Positions 12,821 through 61,329 of a DNA stretch of 64,000 bases are shown here, in pieces. Origin of the DNA: a virus; the IMG/VR virus record IMGVR_UViG_3300027747_002638; one strand, written 5' to 3'. Below the pieces are notes generated by a model that worked only from the letters and a program-made list of their open reading frames with translations, was not told the DNA's origin and searched no databases. Made by a program: the position numbers and the translations under genes. Positions within the stretch are counted from its first letter, which is position 1, and each line of letters begins with the position of its first letter.

Positions 12821-13070
12821 TGCAAGTTCCACCGCATAATGGATTTCCATCTGGCGCAGCATACAGGACTCCACTCATAAATCGATAACAATTATAATTC
12901 AAAGTATAGGCTACTTCTCTGAACTGAATATAAGTTCCAGTTTTTAGATTAACATCTATACTTCCAAGGTAATCTGCAACATCGATTAATGGTAAACTTG
13001 AACCAAGTCTGTTTCCAGCTAGGTCATAAATTACAGCATGATTACTTACAAATAATGGAAGATTTGCCAT
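12810..13070 (-). CDS. Small hypothetical late protein
   Basis: 86-aa ORF preceded by the GTGTAA element 8 nt upstream. Confidence 0.7.
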   Translation of the reverse strand: MANLPLFVSNHAVIYDLAGNRLGSSLPLIDVADYLGSIDVNLKTGTYIQFREVAYTLNYNCYRFMSGVLYAAPDGNPLCGGTCINC

Positions 13071-13078
13071 ACTAATAA

Positions 13079-13084
13079 TTACAC
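13079..13084 (-). promoter_or_regulatory. GTGTAA putative late promoter element
   Basis: TTACAC on the + strand, 8 nt from ATG 13070. Confidence 0.75.
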
Positions 13085-13090
13085 ATATTT

Positions 13091-13858
13091 TTAATTAAAA
13101 TCTTCTATTTCTATTCTTCGATCTTCAAATCCTTTTAATTTTAAAGCATAAGCTAGTTTGTTATCTATAATAGAACTTTTATATAAACTTTCTCCATTTT
13201 TATTCAATAGTTCTTTTTCAATACGTTTTTCATCTGTATTATAAATATAAGATTTATATATAGGTAATTTATTTGTGCGTGATCTGGGTTTTTTATCTAA
13301 TCCAGTTACTATTAATTTATTTTGTTTGAATATTGAGTTTACTCTAGTAATACTTTCAAAGTCAAATAAATCACTACTTATAGAATCTAATAAATTTTTA
13401 TTTAAAAGATCTTCTATTAAAATAGTTTTACCAATTTGATGCTCCAATGAATAAATTTTATTATTTACTACGCAACCACTAAATACATTAGTTTTTAAAA
13501 TTATAAAATTTTTTATTTTATTAAAATCTAAATCTGGAACTTCATATTGCACCAAGTGGTATTTTAAGGTTGGTTCAAGTACACCTTTAATATAAGTTAA
13601 AAAGAATTTACCATCCAATTCATATAAGCTAGGATTACATTCTATAATTGCTTCATTTTTATTTATTTTAATTTTATTAAATGGCGTATTTATTTTTAAA
13701 ATCTCTCCAGAGTCTAAATCTTTAAGGAAGATTTTCCAGGGTCTAGAGTATGTAATCGTATCTTCTTGTTCAGACTGACAATGTAATAATTTTATTTTAT
13801 TATCTTTTTTGAATAAAAAAGGTTGATGAGTATAAGTTATTTTATTTGTATCATTCAC
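13091..13858 (-). CDS. Hypothetical protein (possible beta-propeller)
   Basis: 255-aa ORF with phage-like composition; HQPFL and ECNPS motifs. Confidence 0.7.
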   Translation of the reverse strand: MNDTNKITYTHQPFLFKKDNKIKLLHCQSEQEDTITYSRPWKIFLKDLDSGEILKINTPFNKIKINKNEAIIECNPSLYELDGKFFLTYIKGVLEPTLKYHLVQYEVPDLDFNKIKNFIILKTNVFSGCVVNNKIYSLEHQIGKTILIEDLLNKNLLDSISSDLFDFESITRVNSIFKQNKLIVTGLDKKPRSRTNKLPIYKSYIYNTDEKRIEKELLNKNGESLYKSSIIDNKLAYALKLKGFEDRRIEIEDFN

Positions 13859-13881
13859 TTAACGATACTATATCTATTAAT

Positions 13882-14220
13882 TTATAAAATAACACCACCC
13901 CATCCGCCAGGATAGCCTGCATATGGTGGACAATCACATTTTGAAGTGCATCCGCAACAATCTTCTGGTTTAGCGCATTCTGCATCTGGATTATAACAAT
14001 CATCGCAACTGTCTGTACAACCACCCTGCGTGCATACATCGCATGCTGGCCCATTTAAAGTTGCATCTGCATCATAGTTACAAGCGTTAGAATCTGTACA
14101 TCCACAAGTGGCGCATTCATCACAAGCATCACAGCAACAAAATGTTTGTTTAATGCCAGAATTACATTGACAATCCGTAGAACAAGCGCACTCGTCTGTT
14201 TCGTTTGGTACATTGGGCAT
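13882..14220 (-). CDS. Cysteine-rich small protein (23 Cys in 112 aa)
   Basis: CxC, CxxC and CCC clusters, GCTDSNACNYD motif; GTGTAA element 9 nt upstream. Confidence 0.75.
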   Translation of the reverse strand: MPNVPNETDECACSTDCQCNSGIKQTFCCCDACDECATCGCTDSNACNYDADATLNGPACDVCTQGGCTDSCDDCYNPDAECAKPEDCCGCTSKCDCPPYAGYPGGWGGVIL

Positions 14221-14229
14221 ATATCAATA

Positions 14230-14235
14230 TTACAC
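14230..14235 (-). promoter_or_regulatory. GTGTAA putative late promoter element
   Basis: 9 nt from ATG 14220. Confidence 0.75.
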
Positions 14236-14241
14236 TAAAAT

Positions 14242-14529
14242 TTAATCTTTAAATGGTATTAATTTTCTTCTTATAAATACTAAGTTAATAAAAAATCCAG
14301 AAAAAGCACTTAATATATTAGAAACATAATCTAAAGTATACTCTTGAAATGGGTTTAAAAATAAAGTTAAAAATAAACAAATCCAAAAACTACTACATTC
14401 ATGACAAAGCAATGGCTTTCTGATATAAGGTATTCTAGCTACAAAATTTCTAAAAGGTCTGGAAGCTTCTGTATCAGACCAAGCGTAACTTACTCCAAGA
14501 CAAACAAACAAGTATAGTAAAAATATCAT
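14242..14529 (-). CDS. Small membrane protein with CxxC (DUF1360-like)
   Basis: Three hydrophobic segments; LLCHECSSFW motif. Confidence 0.65.
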   Translation of the reverse strand: MIFLLYLFVCLGVSYAWSDTEASRPFRNFVARIPYIRKPLLCHECSSFWICLFLTLFLNPFQEYTLDYVSNILSAFSGFFINLVFIRRKLIPFKD

Positions 14530-15792: not shown

Positions 15793-15813
15793 TTACACCC
15801 TTTTTAAGTGTAA
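15793..15813. promoter_or_regulatory. Back-to-back GTGTAA elements (divergent late promoters)
   Basis: TTACAC(15793-15798)-9 nt-GTGTAA(15808-15813) between divergent genes starting at 15783 (-) and 15835 (+). Confidence 0.8.
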
Positions 15814-15834: not shown

Positions 15835-16371
15835 ATGGCAAGCGTTTACGACACAGTATATGGTTGGGCTGTAGGTACTACTTATAGTAAGTACAATATT
15901 GTATCTGGATCTAATAGCAAATATTATTATTCTTTAATAGATAATAATCTTGGAAACAATCCAACTACAATTGCTTATTTACAATCTGGATGGGATGGTT
16001 ATAAATTATTTAATTCTAGTTATATACCAAACTTTTTCTGGCAACCATCTTATCAATCAAGTGCAAAAATTGAACCAAGAGTTAAAAAAATTCAATTTGG
16101 AAACGGATACCAACAAAGAATACCAGACGGTATAAATTTTGAACTTAAAAATTTAACTTTAACTTTTGAAAATAGATCAGAAACAGAAACAGTTTCAATT
16201 TTACATTTCTTAGAACAAAGAGGCGGACAACAATCTTTCGCTTATAATGTTCCAACTATTTATGCAAAACCTTCTGGAGTTAGTAAATTTATTGCACCCA
16301 ACTGGGAAACTAATTATAATTTTTACAACAATTATAGTATTAAAACAGTATTTGAAGAAGTCCCAAATTAA
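15835..16371 (+). CDS. Minor tail / distal tail protein, lambda gpM-like
   Basis: EPRVKKIQFGNGYQQRIPDGIN, FLEQRGG..F, FEEV. Confidence 0.88.
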   Translation: MASVYDTVYGWAVGTTYSKYNIVSGSNSKYYYSLIDNNLGNNPTTIAYLQSGWDGYKLFNSSYIPNFFWQPSYQSSAKIEPRVKKIQFGNGYQQRIPDGINFELKNLTLTFENRSETETVSILHFLEQRGGQQSFAYNVPTIYAKPSGVSKFIAPNWETNYNFYNNYSIKTVFEEVPN

Positions 16372-16377
16372 AATAAT

Positions 16378-17760
16378 ATGCCAACCTCTTTAGAAGTTTA
16401 CAATCAAATAGTAAGTGGATATAAATCCATAAATACAGAAACAAATAAATTAGAACCATCTGTACCAGTAGTTTTTTATGAAATAGATTTAACTCAAATT
16501 TATCCACAGATTAGAAATACCACTACGTTAACAAATCAACCATTACAAAACGGTATTTTAAGAATATATAATGATTACAATTTATACAATTTATCAAGCC
16601 AACCGTATGGTACAATAACTTGGAAAAATAATCAGTATTTTCCAATGCCTGTACATGCAGACGGATTTGAAATGAATAGTGCTGGAACTCTTCCAACTCC
16701 AAGAATTTTTATTGCAAATAGTAGTCCAGATACTTCAACAAATTCTTTTTATAAATATATAAGATTACAAATTCAATCTTTAGGAGATATTGTTGGCGCA
16801 AAATTTACAAGAATTAAAACTTTTTTAAAATATTTAAATGGTGTTAATTTTTCTGGAGGATTTAATCCATATACAGATGATCCATCTATATCTGAAATTG
16901 AGTTACCAAAAGACATTTACTATATTGATCGAAAATCTCAAGAAGATAATTTAATTTTAGAATATTCTTTAGGTTCTATTCTAGATGTTGAAGGAGTATT
17001 TTTACCTTCAAGAACAATTTTTTCTAATAAATGTCCATTTGAGTATAGAGGCGAAGGATGTTTGTATGAATATGATAGTAGAAGATCTATAGTCCATAGC
17101 GGAGTTTATGGAGGAATTGTCAACTCGAGTGGAGTTAATATAAGATTACTACAAACTGCACCACCAGTTGCAACAGAAAATGATCAGCTTTTCTTGGGAT
17201 CATCTGGTTCAGTTTTTGTTACTGGAGTTAATACTTATGCTGTAAATAGAATTACTGGCGGAGCTGGTGATTTAGGAGCATGGAATACTGGACAAAGTTA
17301 TACAAGTGGAGATTTTATATATTTACAAAATACAAGTAAATTAAATTATTATTTTGTATGTATTAATAATCATACGTCTTCTTTAGAAAATTCTCCACCA
17401 AATACAACATTTTGGTTAGCAGATTCTTGTTCTAAAAGTATTTCTTCATGCAGACTAAGATGGTTAAAAAATCCAGCTTTTAGACCTGTTATTTGGCCAA
17501 CGGATAGAGGTGGTTGGGATTTAAATTATTATAAATTAGCTGATAGAATGCTTAGAACAGCAATAGAAGCAACTAGTCAGTTAAGTCCACCAGCTTTTGT
17601 TGATACAGGTATAAATTCTCCATTTCCAAGAAGACCAGCATGTTGGAATCCAAACTCTGATATTTCGCATGGAATACCAAAAGATTATTTAGGAAATTAT
17701 TTAAATGGATTTCTTCCATTTGGAGGTTTTCCAGGAACAGATCAACCAAACAATCAATAA
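16378..17760 (+). CDS. Minor tail protein, lambda gpL-like
   Basis: GFEMNSAGTLPTP, YYIDRK, and Fe-S cysteines CPFEYRGEGC...DSCSKSISSCRLR. Confidence 0.9.
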   Translation: MPTSLEVYNQIVSGYKSINTETNKLEPSVPVVFYEIDLTQIYPQIRNTTTLTNQPLQNGILRIYNDYNLYNLSSQPYGTITWKNNQYFPMPVHADGFEMNSAGTLPTPRIFIANSSPDTSTNSFYKYIRLQIQSLGDIVGAKFTRIKTFLKYLNGVNFSGGFNPYTDDPSISEIELPKDIYYIDRKSQEDNLILEYSLGSILDVEGVFLPSRTIFSNKCPFEYRGEGCLYEYDSRRSIVHSGVYGGIVNSSGVNIRLLQTAPPVATENDQLFLGSSGSVFVTGVNTYAVNRITGGAGDLGAWNTGQSYTSGDFIYLQNTSKLNYYFVCINNHTSSLENSPPNTTFWLADSCSKSISSCRLRWLKNPAFRPVIWPTDRGGWDLNYYKLADRMLRTAIEATSQLSPPAFVDTGINSPFPRRPACWNPNSDISHGIPKDYLGNYLNGFLPFGGFPGTDQPNNQ

Positions 17761-18485
17761 TGAATACTAAAATTAAAAATAAAATAAGAAATCATGCGAT
17801 AGAAGAATCTCCGCAGGAATGTTGTGGTTTTGTTATTGAACATAATGGGATTATAGACGTTTTGAAATGTAAAAATATATCTAAAGACCCAATTAATAAT
17901 TTTAAAATATCTGCTCTAGAATTTTTAAAAATAAAAAATTCATACAATCCACTTTATATTTATCACAGTCATTTAGATGAAGAAAACTTCTCGATGATGG
18001 ATAAAAATTGCGCAGAAGAATCATCTATAGATTTAATACTTTATATATTAAAAAGCGATACTTTCAAGTATTACAGTTCTAATAATTCAGAAAGTTTAAA
18101 ATATATTGGAAGAAATATTAATTTTCAACAAACAAATTGTTTTGATTTAGTAAAATTATACTATAAAAATGAATTTAATGTAGATTTAAAATTTCCAGAA
18201 AATTTTATAAATGACCATATGCTAAAAGTAAATCAAGAAAATCTTGATCTAGTATTAGAATATGCAAAAATAAATAATCTAGAATTAGATTATACTGATG
18301 AATTCATAAACCACGATATATTACTATTTAATAGTGATGGTTATTTTCATTTAGCTATTTATTTAGGAAATGACAAGATTTTAGAACAACCTAGAAATGG
18401 GTTTTCAAAAATAACAAATTACTGTAATTACTATAAGAGAAATAAAATAGCTAGACTAAGGAGATCAAAAAATGGTAACAGTTAA
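17760..18485 (+). CDS. Tail assembly protein, lambda gpK-like (JAB/MPN + NlpC/P60)
   Basis: PQECCG, YHSH..FS..D; NCFDLV...HLAIYLG. Confidence 0.9.
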   Translation: MNTKIKNKIRNHAIEESPQECCGFVIEHNGIIDVLKCKNISKDPINNFKISALEFLKIKNSYNPLYIYHSHLDEENFSMMDKNCAEESSIDLILYILKSDTFKYYSSNNSESLKYIGRNINFQQTNCFDLVKLYYKNEFNVDLKFPENFINDHMLKVNQENLDLVLEYAKINNLELDYTDEFINHDILLFNSDGYFHLAIYLGNDKILEQPRNGFSKITNYCNYYKRNKIARLRRSKNGNS

Positions 18486-19224
18486 TTTACACGGTAGATT
18501 AGGGGAAGAGATAGGAGAAACATGGCATTTAAATGTTACTTCTGTATCAGAAGCTATGAGAGCAATAGAAGCAAATACTAGAACTTTTAGAAAGTGGCTA
18601 CTAGATAACTCTAAAACAAAAGGTTATTCTTCATACGCAATACTTATAAACAATAAACCAGTAGAAATTAAAAATCAAGAAAATATAAATGAATTTAAAA
18701 ATTCAGAAGTATTTATGGAATATGGAGAAAAACTTCAAACAATAGATCTTATACCAGAAGTAATGGGATCTCGTAGCGCTATAATGTTTGTTGTTGCAAC
18801 AGTTTTAATTATTACAGCAATTTTTGTTCCACCATTAGCTCCAGTTTTAATATTAGGCGCAATTGGATTAATAGCTGCTGGTGTTACTAGTTTATTAAGT
18901 AAACCACCACCACTTATTCCATATAATGCGCAACAAGCAGATCCTATAAGCACTTCTGCAGGAGAAGTTGGAGGCCCAAGTTCTTATCTTTTTAATGGCC
19001 CAGTAAATACAGTTGGTGAAGGAGGACCAGTCCCAGTAGGATATGGTACTTTATTAATTGGATCAAATAATGTATTTGCATCTTATGATGTTCAATATAA
19101 AACATCTAGAAGAGGAATTACTGCTGCTGGAAATACAGTATCTTCTGGATCTTATACATATTTATTTGATTCTAATTGTAGATTAATGGGTCAAAAACCA
19201 ACAATAAACGAAATAAATTTCTAA
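18472..19224 (+). CDS. Tail assembly protein, lambda gpI-like
   Basis: VNLHGRLG..SVSEAMRAI, hydrophobic segment, SYLFNGPVNTVGEGGPVPVGYG. Confidence 0.9.
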   Translation: MVTVNLHGRLGEEIGETWHLNVTSVSEAMRAIEANTRTFRKWLLDNSKTKGYSSYAILINNKPVEIKNQENINEFKNSEVFMEYGEKLQTIDLIPEVMGSRSAIMFVVATVLIITAIFVPPLAPVLILGAIGLIAAGVTSLLSKPPPLIPYNAQQADPISTSAGEVGGPSSYLFNGPVNTVGEGGPVPVGYGTLLIGSNNVFASYDVQYKTSRRGITAAGNTVSSGSYTYLFDSNCRLMGQKPTINEINF

Positions 19225-19225
19225 T

Positions 19226-22200
19226 ATGGCAGGAGCAACAAATCTTAGCGCAGAAGGACTAGAATACCTTTGGTATCCAGGAACCATAGGATTAACTTTT
19301 GCTGGAATGACTTTCCCAGAAAGTGAATGCATAGATAGCGCTCCAGGAGTTAGTTCACTTAGTTTTAGTGGTTATGATCCTATGGGAGCTTTTGATTTTT
19401 ATTTTAATAATGGAATAAGTGGATATAAAACTTACTCTAGTCAAATTATGACATTTGATGGCTTAAGTAATCTTTGGCAATTTAATTCTGCTGTTGATTC
19501 TGTAGTAAATATTAGTTATCTTCGAGGTGCCCCAAATTTCAATAGCTTATATTCAATTGTTTATGGCGGAAGCGCTTTTGATCCAGTAAATTACGGTAAA
19601 ACTACTTTAATAAGTGGTACGACTGGAAATGTTGCAATAACTAGCATAAATAAAATAGGAGTATTAGATTTAATTTGCGAAGGGCCAATAGAAGGTTTTG
19701 TAACAGGAACTTATTTTTATAGTTATTCTGGAAAAAATACTGGAGATATTGGATATACTTCATATTCTTTTATTCCATTTAATAGTTCTGGTTTTTATGG
19801 CGGATCAGAAGATGGAAATCAATATCTTGAAACTCCACCAGAATCTCGTTCAATTTTTTGGAATGATATTCCAATTGTTCAAAAGAATGGAGCGTATAAT
19901 TTTAAATCAGTAAACTATAAATATACTATAGGTGATCCTAATTTGCATACTCAAATGAGTCCCACAATAAATTTATTTGAAGATAGATATAGCTATTTTG
20001 GAAATCAAATAGATAAATTTAAATATCCTCTTGTAACTTCAAGAACAAAATCAATAAATGAAAGACTTTTTGGATCAATTATAACTACTGGTATTACTGA
20101 CGTTGGATTTCCTAAATCTTATAATGTATATAATACAGATGTTTCTGCTATAAAATTAAATTTTAAAATTAATGGATTAAGTGAAACGATTGTTTCAGTT
20201 GGATCTGGAAATCAAGGGGATGTTTATAAACAAACTCTTAAAATTAATTTTTTGTTATTTAGACTTTTTAGAGATGGTAGTACCGCATTAATAGATGCTT
20301 CTCAATTTTATCCATATAAAAGTCAATATTATTTTAACCATAGTATTTTACTTAGAGGAAAAGTAAGCAGCCCAATGTTAAGTTCTTATCAATATTGTTT
20401 TCGACCATTTGCAGAAAATTTTCCAGCTTTTCAAATCATGCAAAATCAAATTGGATGGTCGGTTACAGTAACTAAAATAACTCAAGAAGGTTTACCTCCA
20501 GGAGTGACAAACTCTTGTTCAGTTGATAGCATAACAGAAATTTATAGTGATAGATTTGTTTATCCTAATGTTGCAATGGTTTACAATGAATTTGATGCTA
20601 GATATTTTAATAGCGTTCCAACAAGAAGTTATAAAATGAGACTTTTAAAAGTTAAAATCCCAAATAATTATGATCCAATTACAAGAAGTTATAACGGTTA
20701 TTGGGATGGTACATTTAAATTAGCATGGACAGATAATCCTGCCTGGTGTTATTATGATTTAATTACCAATAATAGATATGGGTTAGGTAAGTATATTGAT
20801 TCATCCTTAGTTGATAAATGGAATCTTTATGAAATTGCACAATACTGCGATCAATTAGTTCCAGATGGTAATGGTGGTTTAGAACCAAGATTTACTTGTA
20901 ATTTAATGATTTCAGCAAAAGATGAAGCTTATAAAGTTTTGAATGATATGGCTTCAATATTTCGAGGGATAACTTATTATTCTGCTGGATTAGTTTTTGC
21001 AAATCAAGATAGACCCAAAAATATTATTTATTCATTTAATAACGCAAATGTTGTAGATGGTAAATTTACATATTCAGATAGTTCAAGAAGAGTTAGAAAA
21101 ACCGTAGCAACTATTAGATACAACAATGAAGATGATAATTATAAACCAGCAATAGAATATGTAGAATATAGACCTGGAATATTAAAATATGGAATAAGAG
21201 AAATTGCAGTTACTGCATTTGGTTGTACAAGCAAAAACCAAGCAAGAAGATTAGGAAAATGGTATTTGATTACAGAAAATTTAGAAACGGAAACAGTAGT
21301 TTTTGATGCAGGATTAGATGCTGGATATCTTATTCCAGGAGATTTAGTTCAAATTTATGATCAAAATAGAAAAAATGTAAATTTTGCTGGAAGAACGAAA
21401 GAATTATCTACAGGATCTGCGACTCTTGATTTACCATATAATACTGGAATATTAAATAATTTAACTGGATTTAAGAGTAATTTTGATATTTTCTTCTTAA
21501 CTCCTACTTACAATTTAAATTACGGAACAGACCTAGGTAATGATTATATAACTGGTTACAATATAACCTCAAGCGGTGCGACAGGATTAAACTCGGATTT
21601 CTTTAGAAGAAGCGCTGTTCAAAAAATGACTATACCATTACCAACTCAAAACTATATAACAAGAGGAACTGGAGTTTATTCAGACAATATTAGAATAATA
21701 TTTCCTTCTGGTTTGAACGGATCAGGATATAGTTTATTGGAAAATGCTGTATGGAATATAGATGTAAATACTAGTGGATATACTGGCATAGATATTATAT
21801 CGCCAATAAATAATCCTTCTAGTTTAACATATCCAGGCGCATTATATGATGGATATTTAAATGAACCACAAATTTATAGAATTTTAAATATAAAAGAAGA
21901 TCCAGAAAATAAAACATATAATGTATCAGCTATGCAATATGTACCAGCAAAATATGGAGAAATAGATTTAGACGCGCAATTAATAAATGTACCTAATAAA
22001 CCTTTACTTCCTGGCGCTCCAAATGTAATTTTAAGCGGTTTATATAGAGATGCAGCTGGTAATTTAACAGGATCAAATAGATTATTGTATCAAGGAGTTC
22101 AAACTGCGATTGGAATTAATAGCGTAGCTTATTCTATATCTCCATCTACAAATGGTTCTTATATTAGTCAATATTTAATTTATATGAGAACAGGTACAGC

Positions 22201-30602: not shown

Positions 30603-30608
30603 TTACAC
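30603..30608 (-). promoter_or_regulatory. GTGTAA putative late promoter element (tape measure)
   Basis: 24 nt from ATG 30578; the leader carries an AAGGA SD. Confidence 0.75.
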
Positions 30609-32899: not shown

Positions 32900-32905
32900 T
32901 TACAC
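32900..32905 (-). promoter_or_regulatory. GTGTAA putative late promoter element
   Basis: Directly follows the terminator U-tract. Confidence 0.7.
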
Positions 32906-32938
32906 AAAAAAATAACCCCCGAGAACGGGGGTTATTTT
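32906..32938 (-). terminator. Rho-independent terminator after the major tail tube gene
   Basis: - strand AAAATAACCCCCG-TTCT-CGGGGGTTATTTTTTT. Confidence 0.9.
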
Positions 32939-34101: not shown

Positions 34102-34107
34102 TTACAC
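34102..34107 (-). promoter_or_regulatory. GTGTAA putative late promoter element (tail tube)
   Basis: 25 nt from ATG 34076; GGAG SD in the leader. Confidence 0.75.
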
Positions 34108-36554: not shown

Positions 36555-36560
36555 TTACAC
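36555..36560 (-). promoter_or_regulatory. GTGTAA putative late promoter element
   Basis: 10 nt from ATG 36544. Confidence 0.75.
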
Positions 36561-39484: not shown

Positions 39485-39499
39485 ATACACAAATTACAC
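39485..39499 (-). promoter_or_regulatory. Tandem GTGTAA / GTGTAT elements
   Basis: TTACAC 39494-39499 and the variant ATACAC 39485-39490, the latter 10 nt from ATG 39474. Confidence 0.7.
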
Positions 39500-39729: not shown

Positions 39730-39758
39730 ATTATAAAGTTAATATAATTAAATTTCAA
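39730..39758 (-). promoter_or_regulatory. sigma70-type promoter, leaderless
   Basis: TTGAAA-17 nt-TATAAT, 7 nt before GTG 39722. Confidence 0.65.
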
Positions 39759-39777: not shown

Positions 39778-40227
39778 TTACACTGGGATTTCTATCTCTT
39801 GATTTTTGTTGTAACTGCCTATTTTATTTAATTTTTTGATATCTAATTGAGAGGCTAGTTGCTGTAAATCTGGTATATTAATTGCATCTGTTATAAAATC
39901 ATAATCACTATATTTAACTTTTATATTAAATTTAGAAGCAAGTTCGTCTGCTTCAGCGTCTTGTCTCCATTTTCCAGTAACTCTTGAGCCAGTTGCTATT
40001 AGTTTAAAATTTTGATCTGGATTGAGTTTTTTAAGTTCTGAAGCTATTGTAAGATATATATTTTTAGTTTGGTCATCAAATTCTTCGAATTTTGTAATTT
40101 TAGGCTTATTATATTTTCTAGATTCTTTGATTGCTTCTAAAGAGTTAACGAAAGCTTGAACTTCTGGTGATTGATCTTTCATTTCAATCAATTCTTTTAA
40201 AGTATAATTTTTACCTATTTCTATCAT
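39778..40227 (-). CDS. Minimal nucleotidyltransferase (Pol beta superfamily)
   Basis: IATGSRVTG...SDYDF motif. Confidence 0.7.
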   Translation of the reverse strand: MIEIGKNYTLKELIEMKDQSPEVQAFVNSLEAIKESRKYNKPKITKFEEFDDQTKNIYLTIASELKKLNPDQNFKLIATGSRVTGKWRQDAEADELASKFNIKVKYSDYDFITDAINIPDLQQLASQLDIKKLNKIGSYNKNQEIEIPV

Positions 40228-41300: not shown

Positions 41301-41306
41301 TTACAC
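41301..41306 (-). promoter_or_regulatory. GTGTAA putative late promoter element
   Basis: 9 nt from ATG 41291. Confidence 0.75.
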
Positions 41307-46220: not shown

Positions 46221-46226
46221 TTACAC
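46221..46226 (-). promoter_or_regulatory. GTGTAA putative late promoter element
   Basis: 15 nt from ATG 46205. Confidence 0.7.
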
Positions 46227-46753: not shown

Positions 46754-46759
46754 TTACAC
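46754..46759 (-). promoter_or_regulatory. GTGTAA putative late promoter element
   Basis: 9 nt from ATG 46744. Confidence 0.75.
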
Positions 46760-51900: not shown

Positions 51901-54900
51901 TTTAGTATCAAGAGTAGAGCCTGTGCTTGCAAGGTTAACTGTTGTTGCATACAAAGTTGAAGATCCAGTAAGCACTGGATTTCTATTAACAAAAAGTCCA
52001 CTAGTAAAATTACCACTTCCATAAACTGTAAAATTATTACCAGAAATAACTAGAAAATCACCTTGCGCCGAGTCGCCAAATGTTGTATCATTTATGAAAT
52101 TTTTGGTTCCAGATATTGTTTCATTTCCAGTTTTATGAACAACTTCGGAATTTAAGGCTATATAATCAGTTTTACCACTTGGAATATACAATCGAGTGCC
52201 GATTGGATCTTGAGATTGCACACTATTTAATGTATTTTCGCCTAATGGCCCAGCATTAAACCAAAATCCTACATTTCTAAAATCGCCGTCATAATTATTA
52301 TTAAAATATAATTCATTATCTCCCCATTGTAAAGCATTATTCGCACCATTTGCCGAATCATACATATAAATCTTACTTCCATCTAATTTTAAATCTCCAT
52401 TAACATGTAATTTTTCAGAGGGACTAGTTGTACCAATGCCAACATTTGTATCATACCAGTATAACATACTTTGGCTATTTGCATCAAGTAATTGTCTATT
52501 ATTCCATAAAACAGATTGAACTTGACTACCGTCAGTTAATGTATATTCTTCTGTGCTTAATATATCATTACCACCACCATCTTTTAGGAACACAAAACTT
52601 TCATCAGTACTAAGATAATGGTTTTTTCCTATTCTATTATTAATTCCTGTTAAATTTATATTATCAGTGAAATTTTTATTTCCAGCTATAGTTTGATTTC
52701 CAGTAGTAAAAACAATATTACTAGATGTGGAATTTATATAACCGCTAAGATTATCTATTTTTGTATTTAAAGTCGATCCAGTAGAAGCAAGATTGGTTAT
52801 TGTACCAAATTTAGCATCTGCAACTCCACTATAAGCTACAAGTTGTTGAACTGAAGCTATATCAGGCAAAGGCGAAAGATCGCTATTTCTTGTGCTAATT
52901 CCAAATTTAAATTTATTAGAATGATCAAAACCAATAATTGGACCAGTATCATTTACTCCAGTTAATCCACTTCCAGTAACAAAAAATATTCCACCATCAA
53001 CTGCTCCACCAGTAATATTTAACAATAAATAATTACTTGCAAGATTAACTTGAGAAGTATTAACAATTGTTTCTGTTCCAGTAACATAAAGATTATTAAT
53101 ATAAACATTATCTCTAAAAGTTTTAACTCCACCAATACTTTGATTTCCATAAAGTAATACTGAACTACCACTTAGTGAATCTATTTTATTACTTAAAGTA
53201 GATCCTGTAGTATTTAAATTAGTCGATAAAGTTGATCCAGTACTTGCAAGATTGGTTGCTAATGTACTTCCAGTAGACGCAAGATTAGCTGAAGTAGCAT
53301 AAAGAGCTGGAGTTACTTGTACGCCACTTACTTGTAGTCCCATTCCATTTTGAAAATTAACATTATTATTATCTATTGAAACAGCAAGTCTTTGAGATGG
53401 ACTGCCAAAAAAATCGCCTCTTCTGTATATGTTTATATTTTTTGATGATAACGCTGTTCCAGCATCTGATGTGCCATTAATATTTATATCACCAAACATA
53501 TTAATTTTACCGTTATAAGTTGTAGATACTCCTGCTTCAAGAACAATATTTCCAGCAGTCCCATTCTGATCAATTGAAGGTCTTATAGTTATATCTGCAG
53601 TAGATGGACTAGATATAGTAGTCTTTGCGCCGCCAATAGTAATACTTGCACCAGTTTTTAATATATTTGGTGCAACTCCACTCAAACTACCACCCATTAA
53701 AATGAGATCACTCGCATTAATGTTTGATCCGCCCACGCCTGAACCTGCTATAATATTTAAAGTTGAGCCAAAAATACCAGAAATATACGAAGTACTTAAT
53801 CCATTATTAAAAGTTTTAATTCCAGAAATATTCTGATTGCCAAATGTTAATACTGAAACGCCACTCAGATTATTTATTTTATTATCAAGAGTCGAACCAG
53901 TACTTGCAAGATTTATAATTGTAGCGTAAGTAGAACTAGCGGTAGAAGAAGTAAGATAAGAACTTAAATCTACTCCAGTAATTAATGGATTTCCGCTAAG
54001 TATTGGAGCAACAGCGAAAGTTTTAATTCCAGAAATAGTTTGATCACCTATACTATAAACTACTGGATCATATGAATTAATTAAATTTTTATTAACATTA
54101 TTTCCAATTTTTGATTCTGTGCTTCCGCCAGTTGCATCTATACTAAAATAAAGATTTTTATAAAAAAGATAAGAATAATCTACTCCATTTATAGCATAAC
54201 TATTAGCGTTTGCTGGAACAGAAATTGCTGAACCAACTACTACTGCTGTAGAAGATGGATCTTTTAAAAATATTCCAGTCGAAGGATTCGCTGTATTTGT
54301 TAGCACGCTATTTAATAAAGTTAATCTAGCAGCGTTTTCAACTTGAAAAGCTTTTGCTCCAGTTGTTTCTATTTGAGAGTTACTTATATTTAAAGTACTA
54401 TTATTTCTAACGTAAGCTAAAACACTTGCAGAACTACTAGTCTCAGCAAAAGAAATCGAAGATGTTCCACTTACTATATCAATTGCTGTTGTATTTACTC
54501 CTTCTGGACTAAGTTTTAATATATCTCCTTGCAATCTTGAAGTTGTATTTGTATTATTTGAATATAAACAAGTTCCATTATCTTTTGCTATCAACCAACA
54601 ATCTTGAATAAACAGTCTTTGAGGGTGATTTCCAGAAAATAATATACATTTATTATTTGAAGTGGCCGTTATTCCTAACCCAGCTATTGAAAAATTATTA
54701 TCTGTTGCGGTTCCACCTGTGGCTGCAAAAACTAATGAGCCAGTTATTCTAATTGGATCATTTTTATTTGTATTATTTCCTACTAAATTAATATATCCTT
54801 TATCTATAGTTAAATTTTCAGCTATTGGGCTAAGAAGCGTTATATAAGTTGGATTGTGAAAATATGCAATATTTTTTGCTGCATTGTAAGCGCCACTTAA

Positions 54901-55227: not shown

Positions 55228-55228
55228 C

Positions 55229-55510: not shown

Positions 55511-56887
55511 TTATAATCCAAATGATCCAATTCCTCCATTACAATTTGTAAAAGTCCCACTTGGTCTTCCGCGGACGATGATGCCTAAATAGTTAGGCAA
55601 ACCATCACCACCAAATGAACGACTTCCTGCAGTACAATCTTTAAAAGTTCCACTTGCAGTTCCACCACCCCCGCCAAATGAAGCTAATCCACCAGTGCAA
55701 TTTATAAAAGTCCCACTTGCAAGGCCAGGCCCATCGCCTTTTCCACCAAATGAATAGTCTCCACCAGTACAATCTTTAAAAGTTCCAGTTGCGGTTCCAT
55801 TATAACCACCAAATGAAGATGCTCCACCAGAGCAATTTGTGAAAGTTCCACTTGCACTTCCAGCATTTCCGCCAAATGAAACAATTCCACCAGTGCAATC
55901 TTTAAAAATTCCAGTTGTGGTTGAGTTAAGGCCAAATGAACCAAATCCACTAGAGCAATTTGTGAAAGTTCCACTTATCGTTCCATAAAAGACAAATGAA
56001 TAGTTTCCACCAATGCAATCTTTAAAAATTCCACTAGCAATTCCAATGTAACCACCAAATGAAAAATCTCCTGCAGTGCAATTTATAAAAGTTCCACTAT
56101 ATTCTATTCCTGATCTCATACTAAAAACCCAAATAAGATCGAAATCAGAATTAGAACTAAATAATACATTTTCTATATATGTTAAATTTAAATTAGAATC
56201 AGGAAAATAAGCTGATGGATTATCAATATTCGGTTCCTGCGCTGGATATGTTGTATTACTATTTTCTATTGTTAGATTATATAATTTAACATCATTTGCT
56301 GTTTGTTGCACTGTTCCTCTGTTTGCTTCACCAACATCACTTGTTATATAATGTTTGCTTCTATCTGAAGTGGAACCAATTATATCAATATATTCAGTAT
56401 CAAGAATTAAACTTTGTGTTCCAAGATCATATCTTGCTGGTGGTAAAATAACAGCTAATCTATTAGAAGTTGATAAAGCGGCGCCGTTAGGAGTTACAGT
56501 TTTTGCAAGATCATAAGCTGCTAAAAGATTATTACCATTAACTATAGCATTATCTGTTACTTTAACAGTAACATAATTGGCGCTATTTAACTTTGCAGCT
56601 TCACCACTTAAAAGAACGCCAGTACCATTTACAGTTGGTCGATTTGTTAAACCAACTTCACCGTTTATAATACTTATATCTACTCCAGAAATAGTTAGAG
56701 TATCAATATTATTTAAATCAAGAGCATTAAAAATTCCACTTCCAGAAACATTAATATTATCAACAAAAAATTTATTACCAGATATAATTTGGTCGCCAGT
56801 ATTATAAACTAAATTAGGCGCAGTAGCCTCATAAGAAAATCTTCCAGTACTGCTTACTAATGTTTTAGCTTTAAAAATCTGTGCCAT
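55511..56887 (-). CDS. Fibre/spike with a C-terminal Cys-ladder repeat solenoid
   Basis: Shares LVYNTG.Q.ISG.K and RPTVNGTGVLLSG with the 2083-aa fibre; nine G[TI]FxxCxxGxxSF repeats. Confidence 0.8.
   Translation of the reverse strand: MAQIFKAKTLVSSTGRFSYEATAPNLVYNTGDQIISGNKFFVDNINVSGSGIFNALDLNNIDTLTISGVDISIINGEVGLTNRPTVNGTGVLLSGEAAKLNSANYVTVKVTDNAIVNGNNLLAAYDLAKTVTPNGAALSTSNRLAVILPPARYDLGTQSLILDTEYIDIIGSTSDRSKHYITSDVGEANRGTVQQTANDVKLYNLTIENSNTTYPAQEPNIDNPSAYFPDSNLNLTYIENVLFSSNSDFDLIWVFSMRSGIEYSGTFINCTAGDFSFGGYIGIASGIFKDCIGGNYSFVFYGTISGTFTNCSSGFGSFGLNSTTTGIFKDCTGGIVSFGGNAGSASGTFTNCSGGASSFGGYNGTATGTFKDCTGGDYSFGGKGDGPGLASGTFINCTGGLASFGGGGGTASGTFKDCTAGSRSFGGDGLPNYLGIIVRGRPSGTFTNCNGGIGSFGL
55514..56100 (-). 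repeat. Nine roughly 20-aa repeats, alternating F[TI]NC and FKDC types
   Basis: Visible in both protein and DNA (caatttgtgaaagttccact / caatctttaaaa). Confidence 0.85.
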
Positions 56888-56904
56888 TTTCTTTTTATTC
56901 CTTT

Positions 56905-56944
56905 TGTTGGTTTTTAGGCCAATCTGTCGCTTTTTAAGGCGAAC
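56905..56944 (-). promoter_or_regulatory. Twin-hairpin cis-regulatory RNA candidate in a 5' leader
   Basis: 2 x 20 nt: GTTCGC-CTTAAAAA-GCGACA and GATTGG-CCTAAAAA-CCAACA; the stems covary and the loops are conserved; abuts the SD. Confidence 0.55.
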
Positions 56945-56986
56945 TAAAGAGTAAAAGAATTATTAATTCTATTATTCTAGTGAATA

Positions 56987-56992
56987 TTACAC
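56987..56992 (-). promoter_or_regulatory. GTGTAA putative late promoter element
   Basis: 99 nt upstream of ATG 56887. Confidence 0.7.
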
Positions 56993-57000
56993 TAGATAAC

Positions 57001-57813
57001 TTATTGTGTAGAAGCAAAAGTATGGATTTTTACATTACTTTCTAAAACATTGTCAGAAAGTAACCCTGTATATCCAGTGAAACCAACTGATCGTACAGAT
57101 AAATTATACATTACATCCCCAGAAACTTCAAGAGTTGCTTGTACTTTTGGTGGTGTTACACCGCCAAATGGTACTGGATAATTAATTGAATATGCATCTG
57201 CTCCAGGAGTTAAATTTGTTGTAAATACTTGATTACTTGTTTTTGCGACGAATGTTGCATTTGCGTAACCACTTAAAGTATTAATATTTGTTTGTAAAGT
57301 ACTTCCAGTAGAAGCTAGGTTAGTTGCTAGCGTACTTCCAGTACTAGCTAGATTTGTGGCTAATGTGCTACCAGTTGAAGCAAGATTGGTAGCTAGTGTG
57401 CTACCAGTAGAAGCTAGGTTCGTTGCTAATGTACTACCAGTTGAAGCAAGGTTTTGACTTAAAGTAGTTCCTGTTAAATTAAGGTTTGTAGTTAAAGTAT
57501 TAATTAAACCTTGAAAATATCCACTATTTCCTACTATTGTAATTTCGTTAGTTCCAGTATTTACTTGGATAGTAATTCCATCTGAACCAGTTATATTAAC
57601 ATTTCCTGATAAACCATTTATACTATTTACGTCTGCTGCTGCTGTATTAATTAAAGTTTGTAAATAACCGCTAATTCCAGTAAGTTCGCTGTAGTAAGCT
57701 AAACCACTATTTCCGAAGCCAAGTCTTAGTGAAGAACTGCCGTCCCAAACTGCACTTTGAACTGGAGTTAAATTATTTCCACTTAGTCTGATATGTTTAA
57801 ATGCGCTTATCAT
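57001..57813 (-). CDS. Coiled-coil fibre protein with 11-residue repeats
   Basis: Five NLASTGSTL units at 11-aa spacing; VNSINGLSGNVNI; small C-terminal beta domain. Confidence 0.8.
   Translation of the reverse strand: MISAFKHIRLSGNNLTPVQSAVWDGSSSLRLGFGNSGLAYYSELTGISGYLQTLINTAAADVNSINGLSGNVNITGSDGITIQVNTGTNEITIVGNSGYFQGLINTLTTNLNLTGTTLSQNLASTGSTLATNLASTGSTLATNLASTGSTLATNLASTGSTLATNLASTGSTLQTNINTLSGYANATFVAKTSNQVFTTNLTPGADAYSINYPVPFGGVTPPKVQATLEVSGDVMYNLSVRSVGFTGYTGLLSDNVLESNVKIHTFASTQ
57295..57486 (-). repeat. 33-bp / 11-aa tandem repeat (five exact NLASTGSTL copies plus one degenerate)
   Basis: Amino acids are identical while synonymous codons have diverged. Confidence 0.9.
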
Positions 57814-57837
57814 AAATTAATATTTCCTTTCATACTA

Positions 57838-57843
57838 TTACAC
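57838..57843 (-). promoter_or_regulatory. GTGTAA putative late promoter element
   Basis: 24 nt from ATG 57813; AAAGGA SD. Confidence 0.75.
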
Positions 57844-57850
57844 AGATATT

Positions 57851-58402
57851 TTATTTTTTAACTTGAATATTTAAGTAATAACCATTATTTAATAGATTAT
57901 CACTAAAGTTTATATAAAAACCAGTAGAATTTATATTGCCCATGTTAAAATAGTAGGCCATATCATCTACTGTATTCTGAAAAGTACAAACTACGGATTT
58001 TGGAGTAGAAGGTAATACTTGAGGAAATTGAACATAATAACTATCAGATCCTTGAGGTGTTAAATTAGCTCTATATCCAATTACATTTTCTGCTTCAAAA
58101 TAACCACTTAATGGTGATGCATCAATTTTTATTGATTTATAAGGATTTAAATTTGGATTAGTTAATATTGAAATTCCTGTACCAGCAATAAATTGTAAAG
58201 TTTCTATACCAGTTGGAATTAAAGTTGGTTGTCCAGTTACGTTTATTATTTTAAAAAGATCAGCCGCGCCAGATGGTCCTGGAGGGCCTTGTGGACCATC
58301 GGCACCAGGAATAAACACATTAGCATTTTCAGGAAAACTTGGAGAAGTTACATCCGTTGTGATTGCGTTTGGCAAAATTACGTCTACGATTACATCTGCC
58401 AT
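57851..58402 (-). CDS. Short collagen-containing fibre protein
   Basis: GADGPQGPPGPSGAA; C-terminal domain resembles that of 57001..57813. Confidence 0.75.
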   Translation of the reverse strand: MADVIVDVILPNAITTDVTSPSFPENANVFIPGADGPQGPPGPSGAADLFKIINVTGQPTLIPTGIETLQFIAGTGISILTNPNLNPYKSIKIDASPLSGYFEAENVIGYRANLTPQGSDSYYVQFPQVLPSTPKSVVCTFQNTVDDMAYYFNMGNINSTGFYINFSDNLLNNGYYLNIQVKK

Positions 58403-58406
58403 AAAA

Positions 58407-58805
58407 TTAAAAAGATGTTACTTCTGGACTTACAATAAACTTGCCTCGAATTAATTTTATAGAATTACCAGTTGGTACTCCATAAGGAAATCTTTCTATA
58501 TCGTAAACAAATGTTCCAACTGGAACACTTGCCATAGTATATGAAGATACATCTACATTAATTAATCCAGAAGCATAAAGATTGCCACTAACTCCACTAT
58601 TAATTACTGGATTTAAATTCAATATATATCCAGATATATAATTCCCAGATGCATCTAATGCTGGTGATGCAAAATAAGCATATTTGACTACGCCTCTAAC
58701 ATCATATCCACTTAAATTTATTGGGGTATAATTTGGATCTTTTACAGCAAGAGTTAATTGTAAGTGATCACCTTGAATTGTATTTATATTATACGAAGTA
58801 GCCAT
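58407..58805 (-). CDS. Ig-like fibre-anchoring adaptor (BppU-N-like)
   Basis: IQGD..PINLSGY..GTFVYDIE..LIRGKFIVSPEVT; start moved to ATG 58805. Confidence 0.65.
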   Translation of the reverse strand: MATSYNINTIQGDHLQLTLAVKDPNYTPINLSGYDVRGVVKYAYFASPALDASGNYISGYILNLNPVINSGVSGNLYASGLINVDVSSYTMASVPVGTFVYDIERFPYGVPTGNSIKLIRGKFIVSPEVTSF

Positions 58806-58814
58806 ATAATACAA

Positions 58815-58820
58815 TTACAC
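58815..58820 (-). promoter_or_regulatory. GTGTAA putative late promoter element
   Basis: 9 nt from ATG 58805. Confidence 0.75.
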
Positions 58821-58842
58821 TTCAATTATAATTTATTATTAA

Positions 58843-59190
58843 TTATCTACCTTCAGACAGAATATCTTTTGTTTTTTTATCTATTTTAGCTTCAGATTTC
58901 TCTGTTTTTGGTATTCTGTATGTTGATACGTATTTCTTAAATTCTGATATTAATCTTTTTGTAAGCATTTCTCGATCATCAATTGGCACTAGATCTAACT
59001 TTGCTGCATGAGCTTGTAAATCAGTTTTATTTAATTCATATAAATAGCTAACGTACTCTTTCTCGTCTAAAGTCTTGTATCGAGCTAAACCGTTATCGCC
59101 CCATACTTGATCTAATGTTTTGTACTCAAAACCCTCTAATTTTCCATGGGTTTGAGATAAGTTTTGTAGTTTAGTTTTGCCTTTTTTCAT
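58843..59190 (-). CDS. Hypothetical basic protein
   Basis: AAGGA SD; 115 aa. Confidence 0.7.
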   Translation of the reverse strand: MKKGKTKLQNLSQTHGKLEGFEYKTLDQVWGDNGLARYKTLDEKEYVSYLYELNKTDLQAHAAKLDLVPIDDREMLTKRLISEFKKYVSTYRIPKTEKSEAKIDKKTKDILSEGR

Positions 59191-59206
59191 ATTTATTCCT
59201 TACTAT

Positions 59207-59234
59207 ATTATACTGTATTAATAGGAAATTTCTA
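59207..59234 (-). promoter_or_regulatory. Possible sigma70-type promoter
   Basis: TAGAAA-16 nt-TATAAT upstream of 59190. Confidence 0.45.
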
Positions 59235-59252
59235 ATTTAATATAAAATATAA

Positions 59253-59924
59253 TTATGGAAGGGAAACTTTGCCACCCTCCCCAAGTTTCTCAGTATATGG
59301 TTGTCGTAAATCTAAATCACCGAATTTCAAATGTCCATCTTGTATTAATTCTCCCTCAGCATCTGGCGCAAGAATTATTACTTGTTGTAGATTTACGATT
59401 TGATACTCAGCTTGTGGAAAAAAATTATATTGCATCCATTCTGTGAAAAGATTAAATTTTTGCTCAAAAATTTTGCCTTGAGCATTAAAAGCGCTTGGGA
59501 GTTTAGGAACTTCAAAAAGAAATGTTTTTAAATTAACAGACCACTCAACGGTATATGGTATTTGATTTAAAACTGCTACAACTGGATCATCTGTAAGTTG
59601 ATAATAAAAAGCTGGGTAATTTATTCTCTCAAGATGAACAGTTACTGATATTGTAGCGTTATCAGGAGTATTAGAATTAAAAGTGCCAGCAAAACAAGTA
59701 AATCCTCCACCTTGAGGAACATCTCCTTGTATTAAAGGAATACTAGACCAACTTTGGATATAAATTCGTCTAACTGGTTTAACTGGACCGCTCGGATGAT
59801 CTATATTCCACTGTTGATTTATTTTTGCAAGAAAAGCATATGCTTCGTATTCTCCTATGCTTTGGCCGTAATTTTCAGAAAGACCCCACTCAGCCAAATC
59901 CTGCATTTTTCCTTTTTCTGCCAT
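59253..59924 (-). CDS. Hypothetical protein, paralog B
   Basis: Closely similar to 59970..60638; AGGAG SD. Confidence 0.8.
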   Translation of the reverse strand: MAEKGKMQDLAEWGLSENYGQSIGEYEAYAFLAKINQQWNIDHPSGPVKPVRRIYIQSWSSIPLIQGDVPQGGGFTCFAGTFNSNTPDNATISVTVHLERINYPAFYYQLTDDPVVAVLNQIPYTVEWSVNLKTFLFEVPKLPSAFNAQGKIFEQKFNLFTEWMQYNFFPQAEYQIVNLQQVIILAPDAEGELIQDGHLKFGDLDLRQPYTEKLGEGGKVSLP

Positions 59925-59969
59925 ATAATCTCCTATTTTTTGCTATCAAACTAAGCAAATATTTTTAAA

Positions 59970-60638
59970 TTATGGCAATGAGGTTTTGCCGCCATCACCA
60001 AATTGCTCAGTAAACGGTTGTTCTAGGTGTATATCTCCAAAATTAAGAGTTCCATCTTCAATTAATTCTCCCTCAGCATTTGGTGCATTAATTATTACTT
60101 GTTGTATAAAAATAATTTGATTTTGGGATTGTGGAAGAAAAGTGTTTACCATCCATTGTGTAAAAAGATTAAATTTTTGCTCAAAAATTTTACCTTGAGC
60201 ATTAAAAGCACTTGGAAGTTTGGGTGCTTCTAAAAGAAATGTTCTTAAATTAACTGACCATTCTAAAGTATATGGTATTTGATTTAGAGTTGCTACAACT
60301 GGATTGTCTGTGAATTGATAGTAAAAGGCTGGATAATTTATTCTATCAATATGAAGAGTTACTGATATTGTGGCGTTACCAACGGTATTAGAATTAAAAG
60401 TCCCTGCCATGCACATATATCCTCCTCCAGCAGGAACTTCACCTTGGGTTACAGGTATGCTTGTGAAAGCGCTGATTGAAATTTGTCTAACTGGTCTACG
60501 AGGACCACTTGGATGACTTATGTTCCAAAGTCTATCTTGCTCCATCAAAATGGCTTCTGCTGCTGCTTTACCTCTCGCTCCTGGCCACGTTTTATCTCTA
60601 ACCTCATAAGTTCTAAAATCTACCCATCCGTCTGACAT
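59970..60638 (-). CDS. Hypothetical protein, paralog A
   Basis: Shares AGTFNSNT, RINYPAFYYQ and LPSAFNAQGKIFEQKFNLFT with paralog B. Confidence 0.8.
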   Translation of the reverse strand: MSDGWVDFRTYEVRDKTWPGARGKAAAEAILMEQDRLWNISHPSGPRRPVRQISISAFTSIPVTQGEVPAGGGYMCMAGTFNSNTVGNATISVTLHIDRINYPAFYYQFTDNPVVATLNQIPYTLEWSVNLRTFLLEAPKLPSAFNAQGKIFEQKFNLFTQWMVNTFLPQSQNQIIFIQQVIINAPNAEGELIEDGTLNFGDIHLEQPFTEQFGDGGKTSLP

Positions 60639-60654
60639 ATAATTCCCTATCTCC

Positions 60655-61314
60655 TTAGCACCAAACTAAGCAAGGGTTAAAAACTGGCCCAAGTGTTTGG
60701 GCGCTAAACTCTGTTGGTTTACTTGGCATTTGCCAGAGTAAATTTCCATTTATTTCAAATTTTCCATATCCACATGGATATCCATCTGCACCATAAGAAT
60801 CACTAGTTCCTTGTTGACATCCTTCAAAACTTCCTTCTGTGTAATATGTTACTGTTGCAGTTTTAGTCCAAACTGGTTTATTATACTTCTTGCCTTTTGG
60901 TAAATAAGCTCCTTTTTCTTTTAATCCAATAGCTGCTTCAATTAAATCTTGCCAATCACTATCTGAGCACTGAGATATTACTTTAGCCAATCCGTTATCT
61001 GTGCTAGCTCCATTCAACCATCCTTCTCCATGCTCTTGAATATATTCTTTAGCTTTACTTATAACTGCTCCAGGAATGGGTTGAGTTAGGGATATGGATG
61101 GACTTACATTTACGCTTTGTACTTTACAAGTTAATCCATTTATTTTTGCTTCAACTTTATAAGTAACATCTCCAACTATTATACTAGGAGATGAAGGAGG
61201 AGATCCTTTGATGTTTTCTACTTTTTCTTCTATTGATTGCTGATTTAAATCATCGTATGTTTGAAAATTATCGCAAGAATTAGGAGAACATACATAGTTT
61301 GAACACTTTGCCAT
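60655..61314 (-). CDS. Cys-containing hypothetical late protein
   Basis: 9 Cys; GTGTAA element 9 nt upstream. Confidence 0.7.
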   Translation of the reverse strand: MAKCSNYVCSPNSCDNFQTYDDLNQQSIEEKVENIKGSPPSSPSIIVGDVTYKVEAKINGLTCKVQSVNVSPSISLTQPIPGAVISKAKEYIQEHGEGWLNGASTDNGLAKVISQCSDSDWQDLIEAAIGLKEKGAYLPKGKKYNKPVWTKTATVTYYTEGSFEGCQQGTSDSYGADGYPCGYGKFEINGNLLWQMPSKPTEFSAQTLGPVFNPCLVWC

Positions 61315-61323
61315 ATAATTATA

Positions 61324-61329
61324 TTACAC
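61324..61329 (-). promoter_or_regulatory. GTGTAA putative late promoter element
   Basis: 9 nt from ATG 61314. Confidence 0.75.

Follow-up and report, generated by a model that had tools for sequence, protein, structure and literature searches.

The late promoters of phage T4 (TATAAATA) consist of a single element in the −10 region, which is read by gp55 together with gp33 and the gp45 clamp. The gp55 protein corresponds to sigma region 2 only and needs both gp33 and the sliding clamp, and T4 late mRNAs have leaders. The Bacillus phage SPO1 uses a sigma cascade in which gp28 is followed by gp33/gp34, and its promoters are bipartite. In the Thermus phage P23-45, a large long-tailed siphovirus, the middle and late promoters are reportedly −35-less, with an extended −10 of the TGTG type and many leaderless transcripts, and their reader is said to be the host primary sigma factor, altered by gp39 and gp76, two small proteins of the phage. 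The late promoters of Salmonella phage 7-11 are read by gp47 and are bipartite, GTAAtg-16-aCTA (PMC8948821). The sigma factor gp36 of phiEco32 recognizes a single element, tAATGTAtA, with transcription starts 6–8 bp downstream and no −35 (PMC8948821, PMC12276001). Here we analyse the hexamer GTGTAA in a viral DNA stretch of 64,000 nucleotides (nt), IMG/VR record IMGVR_UViG_3300027747_002638, the whole of which is called the window below, and in its relatives. The best explanation of the data, which we regard as reasonably probable, is that R-GTGTAA-T-W is a single-element, −35-less late promoter read by a phage sigma factor, most likely one that carries a zinc ribbon.

The closest known system is that of the middle/late promoters of phiEco32, which depend on gp36 and its cofactor gp79. 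As in phiEco32, a phage factor of the sigma-70 family would here act on the host core enzyme at one element near −10, located before middle/late genes. The phiEco32 box (tAATGTAtA) and the one described here (rGTGTAATw) have only the TGTA core in common, and the specificity of the latter is therefore new. Compared by description, gp36 is reportedly devoid of region-4 homology, whereas a domain resembling region 4 appears to be present in the candidate sigma factor presented below, together with a zinc ribbon of four cysteines. No leaderless arrangement is described for phiEco32, and no counterpart of the cofactor gp79 was identified here. In a textbook comparison, the proposed system resembles T4 late transcription in its single −10-region element, the lack of a −35, the phage sigma-like factor and the association with virion genes, whereas the sequence of the box differs from that of T4 and no sign of coupling to a clamp was seen. 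Unlike P23-45, as that system is reported, the phages studied here encode sigma factors of their own, and their box is far stricter. The late promoters of 7-11 and those proposed here would both be read by a phage sigma factor and both contain GTAA, which belongs to the upstream element in 7-11 and to the single element here. The original prediction on this DNA had called the system undescribed; that applies to the sequence of the box, and a full-text literature search for GTGTAA as a phage promoter returned nothing relevant, but it does not apply to the mechanism, for which T4 gp55 and especially phiEco32 gp36 are precedents. The specificity of the box is new and the insertion in the sigma factor is unusual, whereas the mechanism is of a known kind and involves no new principle.

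Placement of the GTGTAA box in the window and in related genomes

Intergenic space, defined by crude longest-open-reading-frame (ORF) gene calls, amounts to 1338 bases (2.1% of the window) and holds 16 of the 25 GTGTAA copies, in comparison with 0.65 copies expected from composition-preserving shuffles (Poisson p 3e-17; Fisher p 2e-21). Over the whole window the hexamer is no more abundant than expected (25 copies vs 29), indicating that the signal resides in placement and not in abundance. The 16 copies that had been listed upstream of morphogenesis genes were all recovered at the same coordinates and strands. Every one of them points into the downstream gene, and all are situated at 13–61 kb. 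The region 1-13078, which contains the replication block, has no copy on either strand, as had been proposed for the replication genes. The copies within genes that had been named as examples (18487, 46942 and 57156) are real, and non-intergenic copies amount to nine in all.

Three relatives were used most extensively. G001 is an IMG/VR contig of 74 kb, 91–94% identical to the window over 13699-39585 and 56596-64000, that extends 31 kb beyond its right end; G002 is a 133.6-kb relative, 87% complete; and G007 is a distant relative of 182 kb, 98% complete, with a guanine-plus-cytosine (GC) content of 35.5%. No hexamer shows a stronger intergenic enrichment than GTGTAA, whether in the window, in G001 (22 of 37 copies intergenic) or in G002 (33 of 45). 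The sites of G002 are concentrated in the structural region at 2–64 kb, with few elsewhere, and the extended form GTGTAATW shows a strong strand bias in this genome (22 forward and 2 reverse, vs 4 and 4 for a control pattern). Within 30-nt upstream windows of 79 related loci we counted 288 copies where 7.7 were expected, and the hexamer leads the upstream sequences of ~90 related viral contigs, including distant ones with 28–43% GC.

Inside genes the box is depleted in comparison with synonymous-codon shuffles. The depletion affects both strands in the window (sense 2 vs 10.4 expected, antisense 6 vs 13.7), in G001 (sense 6 vs 17.1, antisense 3 vs 16.7) and in G002 (sense 5 vs 18.3, antisense 6 vs 22.8). 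A promoter, being a signal at the DNA level, should be avoided on the antisense strand too, which is not expected of a translation or RNA-processing signal. A motif that is family-wide, directional and strict, and that is depleted within genes on both strands, supports the proposal of a phage-specific late promoter whose factor is encoded outside the window. The elements found in the window are as follows.

11973..12001, plus strand: host-type promoter TTGACA-17-TATCAT, 6 nt before the ATG at 12008; comparator, non-late gene
13079..13084, minus strand: GTGTAA box, 8-nt gap to the ATG at 13070; gene 12810-13070
14230..14235, minus strand: GTGTAA box, 9-nt gap to the ATG at 14220; gene 13882-14220
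15793..15798, minus strand: GTGTAA box, 9-nt gap to the ATG at 15783; back to back and divergent with the box at 15808
15808..15813, plus strand: GTGTAA box heading the tail-tip block M/L/K/I/J at 15835-23904; 21-nt leader with GAGG..AAGGT
30603..30608, minus strand: GTGTAA box heading the tape measure gene 23901-30578; 24-nt leader with AAAGGAATAAGG
32900..32905, minus strand: GTGTAA box directly after the T-run of a terminator; leader with a Shine-Dalgarno sequence
32909..32938, minus strand: intrinsic terminator, 13-bp stem followed by a T-run
34102..34107, minus strand: GTGTAA box, 25-nt leader with GGAG; gene 32961-34076
36555..36560, minus strand: GTGTAA box, 10-nt gap to the ATG at 36544
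39494..39499, minus strand: GTGTAA box, 19-nt AT-only leader; gene 36583-39474 (963 aa)
39730..39758, minus strand: host-type promoter TTGAAA-17-TATAAT, 7 nt before the GTG at 39722; comparator
41301..41306, minus strand: GTGTAA box, 9-nt gap to the ATG at 41291
46221..46226, minus strand: GTGTAA box, 15-nt AT-only leader without a Shine-Dalgarno sequence; gene 45342-46205
46754..46759, minus strand: GTGTAA box, 9-nt gap to the ATG at 46744
56987..56992, minus strand: GTGTAA box, ~99-nt leader to gene 55511-56887; conserved in G001
57838..57843, minus strand: GTGTAA box, 24-nt leader with AAAGGAAA; gene 57001-57813
58815..58820, minus strand: GTGTAA box, 9-nt gap to the ATG at 58805
61324..61329, minus strand: GTGTAA box, 9-nt gap to the ATG at 61314; 46 nt downstream of the capsid-gene terminator
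61375..61412, minus strand: intrinsic terminator, 16-bp stem, after the putative major capsid gene 61433-62509

The boxes are confined to the heads of gene runs. The orientation switches with the inverted tail block, as had been noticed before, and in the gap between the divergent genes the copies at 15793 (minus) and 15808 (plus) stand back to back. A copy follows each of the two strong terminators on the minus strand (32938-32909; 61412-61375), also in agreement with the earlier description. Eight copies (13079, 14230, 15793, 36555, 41301, 46754, 58815 and 61324) are located 8–10 nt before an ATG. The expectation that long leaders carry a Shine-Dalgarno sequence was borne out by six copies at a distance of at least 17 nt, with AGGA, GGAG or AGGT (15808, 30603, 32900, 34102, 57838 and 56987); the 99-nt leader that follows the box at 56987 shows no unusual degree of structure (z = −0.9). 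The intermediate leaders at 39494 and 46221, which have no such sequence, were absent from the original prediction. In G007, GTGTAA is again the leading upstream hexamer and stands mostly before longer leaders with a Shine-Dalgarno sequence, which indicates that its function is independent of touching the start codon.

These observations bear on a possible role of the box in RNA, where it could enhance translation initiation in place of a Shine-Dalgarno sequence or mark a processing site at which the mRNA is trimmed to the start codon. Such a role would account for the constant sense-strand orientation of the box and for its most frequent position 8–9 nt before the start, a Shine-Dalgarno-like spacing. 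We nevertheless consider it very improbable: the depletion extends to the antisense strand of genes, the box is present at operon heads only and not before internal genes, and it occurs after terminators and in divergent pairs. Furthermore, in G007 and at six window sites it lies 15–100 nt upstream of starts that have a Shine-Dalgarno sequence of their own, and it is not known to be complementary to the anti-Shine-Dalgarno sequence.

Some copies overlap the end of a coding sequence. In the window, the TAA of a copy at 39778-39783 (minus strand) is the stop codon of gene 39778-40227; a small ORF (39525-39722), equipped with a host-type leaderless promoter of its own, begins 55 nt downstream of this copy. 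In G001, paralogous gene pairs are arrayed at 60–68.4 kb (L012), and the upstream member of a pair ends in ...N-x-T-G-x-I-x-V-stop. The Val-stop codons of this array (GTG TAA) are at the same time the putative promoter box of the next gene, so that gene and promoter appear to have been duplicated as one unit.

Anatomy of the element

To describe the element, sites from the window, G001, G002 and ~90 related loci were pooled, and the removal of near-duplicates left 171–188 sites with the consensus rGTGTAATw. In 122 of 171 sites the base right after the box is T. The position beyond it is A in 66, T in 75, C in 26 and G in 4 of the 171 sites (0.11 bit), and it is A or T in all 33 sites of the window and G001. 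The earlier observation that no conserved −35 can be seen was confirmed in the pooled sites, where no upstream position exceeds 0.16 bit. None of the 4- to 6-mers at −42 to −14 was enriched after multiple-test correction, gapped k-mer tests included, and the sole upstream k-mer of note was the reverse complement of the box itself, contributed by divergent pairs. The hexamer is strictly kept: its exact form has 150 copies at 7–10 nt from start codons vs 1.3 expected. One-mismatch variants were near background, with the exception of GTGTAT (6 vs 0.46 expected). The most frequent gaps between box and start codon are 8 nt (39 sites) and 9 nt (31 sites), together 70 of 171, with a shoulder at 10–12 nt, and starts with a gap of 13 nt or less are ATG in 120 of 134 cases. 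Judged from the sequences, this geometry is compatible with a transcription start 6–9 bp downstream of the element.

The strictness of the box also bears on the possibility that it is read by the host primary-sigma holoenzyme, maybe modified by a small phage protein as reported for P23-45, with GTG-TAATWT acting as an extended −10-like element and the phage sigma factors serving other promoters. TAATAT and TAATTT do retain the T at −12 and the A at −11 of a −10 hexamer, a TG is present just upstream of the hexamer, and the gap between box and ATG equals that of the host-type promoters of the phage. However, the TG abuts the TAATWT hexamer, the one-base gap of the canonical extended −10 (TGnTATAAT) being missing, and a further G is fixed one base upstream. 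The −7-equivalent position is T in only 89 of 171 sites (~52%). In addition, all six bases of the box are essentially invariant and one-mismatch variants are unused, whereas the −10 boxes of early promoters in the same phages are degenerate. Finally, the identical box is found in phages of 28–43% GC, probably of different hosts, and travels with phage sigma genes. On balance, recognition by the host sigma factor is improbable.

Leaderless geometry of early and late genes

Promoters of the type TTGACA-17-TATAAT were found in the early regions of G001 and G002 and in two places of the window. Of 39 such promoters, 12 are separated from an ATG by exactly 6 nt, a distance that would make its A the +1 nucleotide, and 5 more by 7–8 nt; many more such promoters are present in G002 at 65–132 kb (loci L096-L099). 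Taking TAATWT as the −10 hexamer gives the late sites an equal gap of 5–6 nt. On this geometry, the early and replication genes look leaderless as well, and leaderless design would be a trait of the whole phage. The proposal of a leaderless late regulon is thus supported as far as the close spacing of box and ATG is concerned, but this spacing is not special to the late genes, since the host-type early promoters also abut their starts. The position of these host-type promoters suggests a host in which leaderless mRNA is translated well, a hint at what that host is.

A candidate sigma factor with a zinc ribbon

The original prediction had called for a search for a sigma-like or RNA polymerase gene outside the window. 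A divergent gene of the sigma-70 family was found in the 91–94% identical relative G001, at 52613-53299 (L011:12613-13299), adjoining the large terminase gene and ~9.5 kb past the right end of the window. Its product (P0121) has 228 aa and was examined as a group 4 (ECF-like) member of that family. No match to multisubunit RNA polymerase families was obtained in relatives that are 87–98% complete, and a search of the relatives for a T7-like RNA polymerase, made without a positive control, gave no match either.

Region 2 of P0121 is recognized by Pfam PF04542 (Sigma70_r2) with 28.5 bits (cut-off 24), and TIGR02937 spans residues 29-193 (E 2.6e-9) with a score under its cut-off. A profile of 40 family members matches region 2 of the extracytoplasmic function (ECF) sigma factors SigR, SigW, SigH and CnrH in PDB. 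Region 4 gives a weaker signal: PF08281 reaches 15.4 bits, below the cut-off of 25.7, and the match covers profile positions 6-37 only and ends before the recognition helix. In the AlphaFold2 model (predicted local distance difference test score, pLDDT, 90.6), residues 148-220 form helices, with a loop of ~13 residues (188-200) before the last one. The best 50 Foldseek matches in PDB are almost all sigma factors (sigma-32, SigH, SigL, SigE, SigB, SigA, sigma-28); their E-values are weak (0.017 or worse) because the relative domain orientation differs. Just after region 2, between regions 2 and 4, four invariant cysteines (CxxC...C...C) form a zinc-ribbon pattern (alignment A1).

The family comprises 1869 homologues in 417 clusters at 50% identity, and tblastn of the sigma factor found no match in GenBank phages. 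The box travels together with this family into phages of 28–43% GC whose sigma factors have diverged far, as in loci L100-L108, where the sigma factor is 32–44% identical to a family member that is itself 34% identical to P0121.

The gene just upstream of the sigma gene encodes a protein of 145 aa, with a double CxxC zinc ribbon at its start followed by acidic and then basic tails, which could be a cofactor. The operon formed by this gene and the sigma gene is preceded by a conserved TTAGAT-18-TATAAT-7/8-ATG promoter in 20 related loci (e.g. L017 ~9480-9551). Its −10-like TATAAT box suggests that the sigma factor is made before the late genes. The TTAGAT element was considered as a second, middle promoter class and rejected, as it is conserved before the sigma operon and is not a general upstream motif elsewhere; it may instead be a specific regulatory site.

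A second, sigma-like phage gene was found in the early region of G002 (102820-103449; 209 aa), and its product has to be weighed as an alternative reader of the box. It shows weak matches to Sigma70_r2 and Sigma70_r4, and its operon is located behind a host-type promoter, so that it would be available early. The gene is conserved in G007 (51289-51891), G008 (27164-27721) and G010, which also carry GTGTAA boxes. It is co-conserved with the zinc-ribbon sigma gene even in distant near-complete relatives, a point that weakens the case for the zinc-ribbon protein, and co-occurrence consequently does not tell which of the two is the reader. By inference we favour the zinc-ribbon protein. The second sigma factor has a more canonical region 4, above the Pfam cut-off in G007, which predicts a two-part promoter, but the GTGTAA sites have no −35. 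The zinc-ribbon sigma gene, on the other hand, belongs to the late/packaging block, and a region-4 match that ends before the recognition helix would fit −35-independent reading. We therefore hold recognition by the second sigma factor to be unlikely. That one genome carries two phage sigma genes points to a sigma cascade of two steps, which might run, as in SPO1, from the host sigma to one phage sigma and then to another; a second promoter class for such a cascade was not found here.

Proposed mechanism and points that weigh against it

Computation establishes where the box stands and how it points, its strictness and conservation, its avoidance inside genes, the missing −35, and that the sigma gene exists and encodes a protein of sigma-like fold. 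From these features we infer a promoter at which host RNA polymerase core, equipped with a phage factor of the sigma-70 family, would read the box, the most likely reader being the 228-aa ECF-like protein with its four-cysteine zinc ribbon between regions 2 and 4. This factor would be made earlier and then redirect the polymerase to the GTGTAA boxes, turning on the virion operons. With TAATWT as the −10 hexamer and GTG at −15 to −13, most sites would have 5–6 nt between the hexamer and the start codon. The first transcribed nucleotide would then be the A of the ATG or lie within 1–3 nt of it, and the resulting leaderless mRNA would be translated without a Shine-Dalgarno sequence. Where the box is located further upstream, a normal leader with a Shine-Dalgarno sequence would be produced.

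Several observations weigh against recognition of the box by the zinc-ribbon sigma factor or against the proposed geometry. The sigma gene is known from relatives and not from the window's own assembly, and the protein appears to keep a region-4-like domain although no −35 exists. The variable −7-equivalent of TAATWT, T in only about half of the sites, leaves the −10 register uncertain. The leaders of 15–19 nt at two window sites (39494 and 46221) lack a Shine-Dalgarno sequence, and at some sites of the relatives the gap is as short as 6 nt. It has to be considered as well that the gene calls were crude longest-ORF calls, and that the assembled lake metatranscriptome contigs described below reveal expression of the capsid genes only.

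Gene content, expression and relatives of the phage

The window has a GC content of ~30%. A replication set is encoded on the plus strand at 1-12820 (DnaB-like helicase, thymidylate synthase, primase, exonuclease and DnaE-like polymerase). Genes for a lambda-like tail tip, homologous to M, L, K, I and J, follow on the same strand (15835-23904). The tape measure protein (2225 aa) is encoded on the minus strand at 23901-30578, and the remaining minus-strand genes code mostly for unannotated virion-type proteins. Among the tail-fibre genes, two encode a Laminin_G_3 (concanavalin-like lectin) protein (46760-47446, minus strand) and a protein with an ALK/LTK-type glycine-rich domain (48138-48974, minus strand). 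Six consecutive genes of 254–287 aa, probably paralogous, occupy 41312-46205 (minus strand), and G001 has other genes in place of this array. Four of the six, with starts at 42166, 43023, 43808 and 44569, show upstream GGCAAAGGA/GGAAGGGG-N-ATG junctions and overlapping stop and start codons. The array looks like a set of translationally coupled fibre modules.

In lake-water metatranscriptome contigs, the putative capsid and scaffold genes (window 61343-63343) are covered ~75x, in comparison with 0–10x for their neighbours (one run). This coverage shows that the phage is active in lakes, and it fits the strong terminator located directly after the capsid gene.

A near-identity search of a phage collection with 20 kb of the window gave no match. 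The best matches of the terminase among GenBank phages, with 25–27% identity, were to large Firmicutes siphoviruses.

Significance for the phage lineage

The lake and marine phages that carry the box and the sigma gene form a large, abundant and wholly uncultured lineage, whose sigma genes fall into hundreds of clusters and for which GenBank has no cultured relative. For these genomes the box is a testable promoter annotation, which delimits transcription units within the late region and makes exact predictions of transcript starts. The strict 7-bp box and the small, unusual sigma factor could serve as an orthogonal expression pair. A bolder reading, possible though doubtful, is that this large clade of uncultured aquatic phages makes leaderless transcripts from both early and late genes, and that the ribbon placed after region 2 reads the duplex GTG upstream of the −10. 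The ribbon would then replace both region 3.0 and the −35 contact, which would explain a strict one-box promoter. If this is true, the phages would possess a compact orthogonal sigma/promoter pair and a whole virion regulon translated independently of Shine-Dalgarno sequences.

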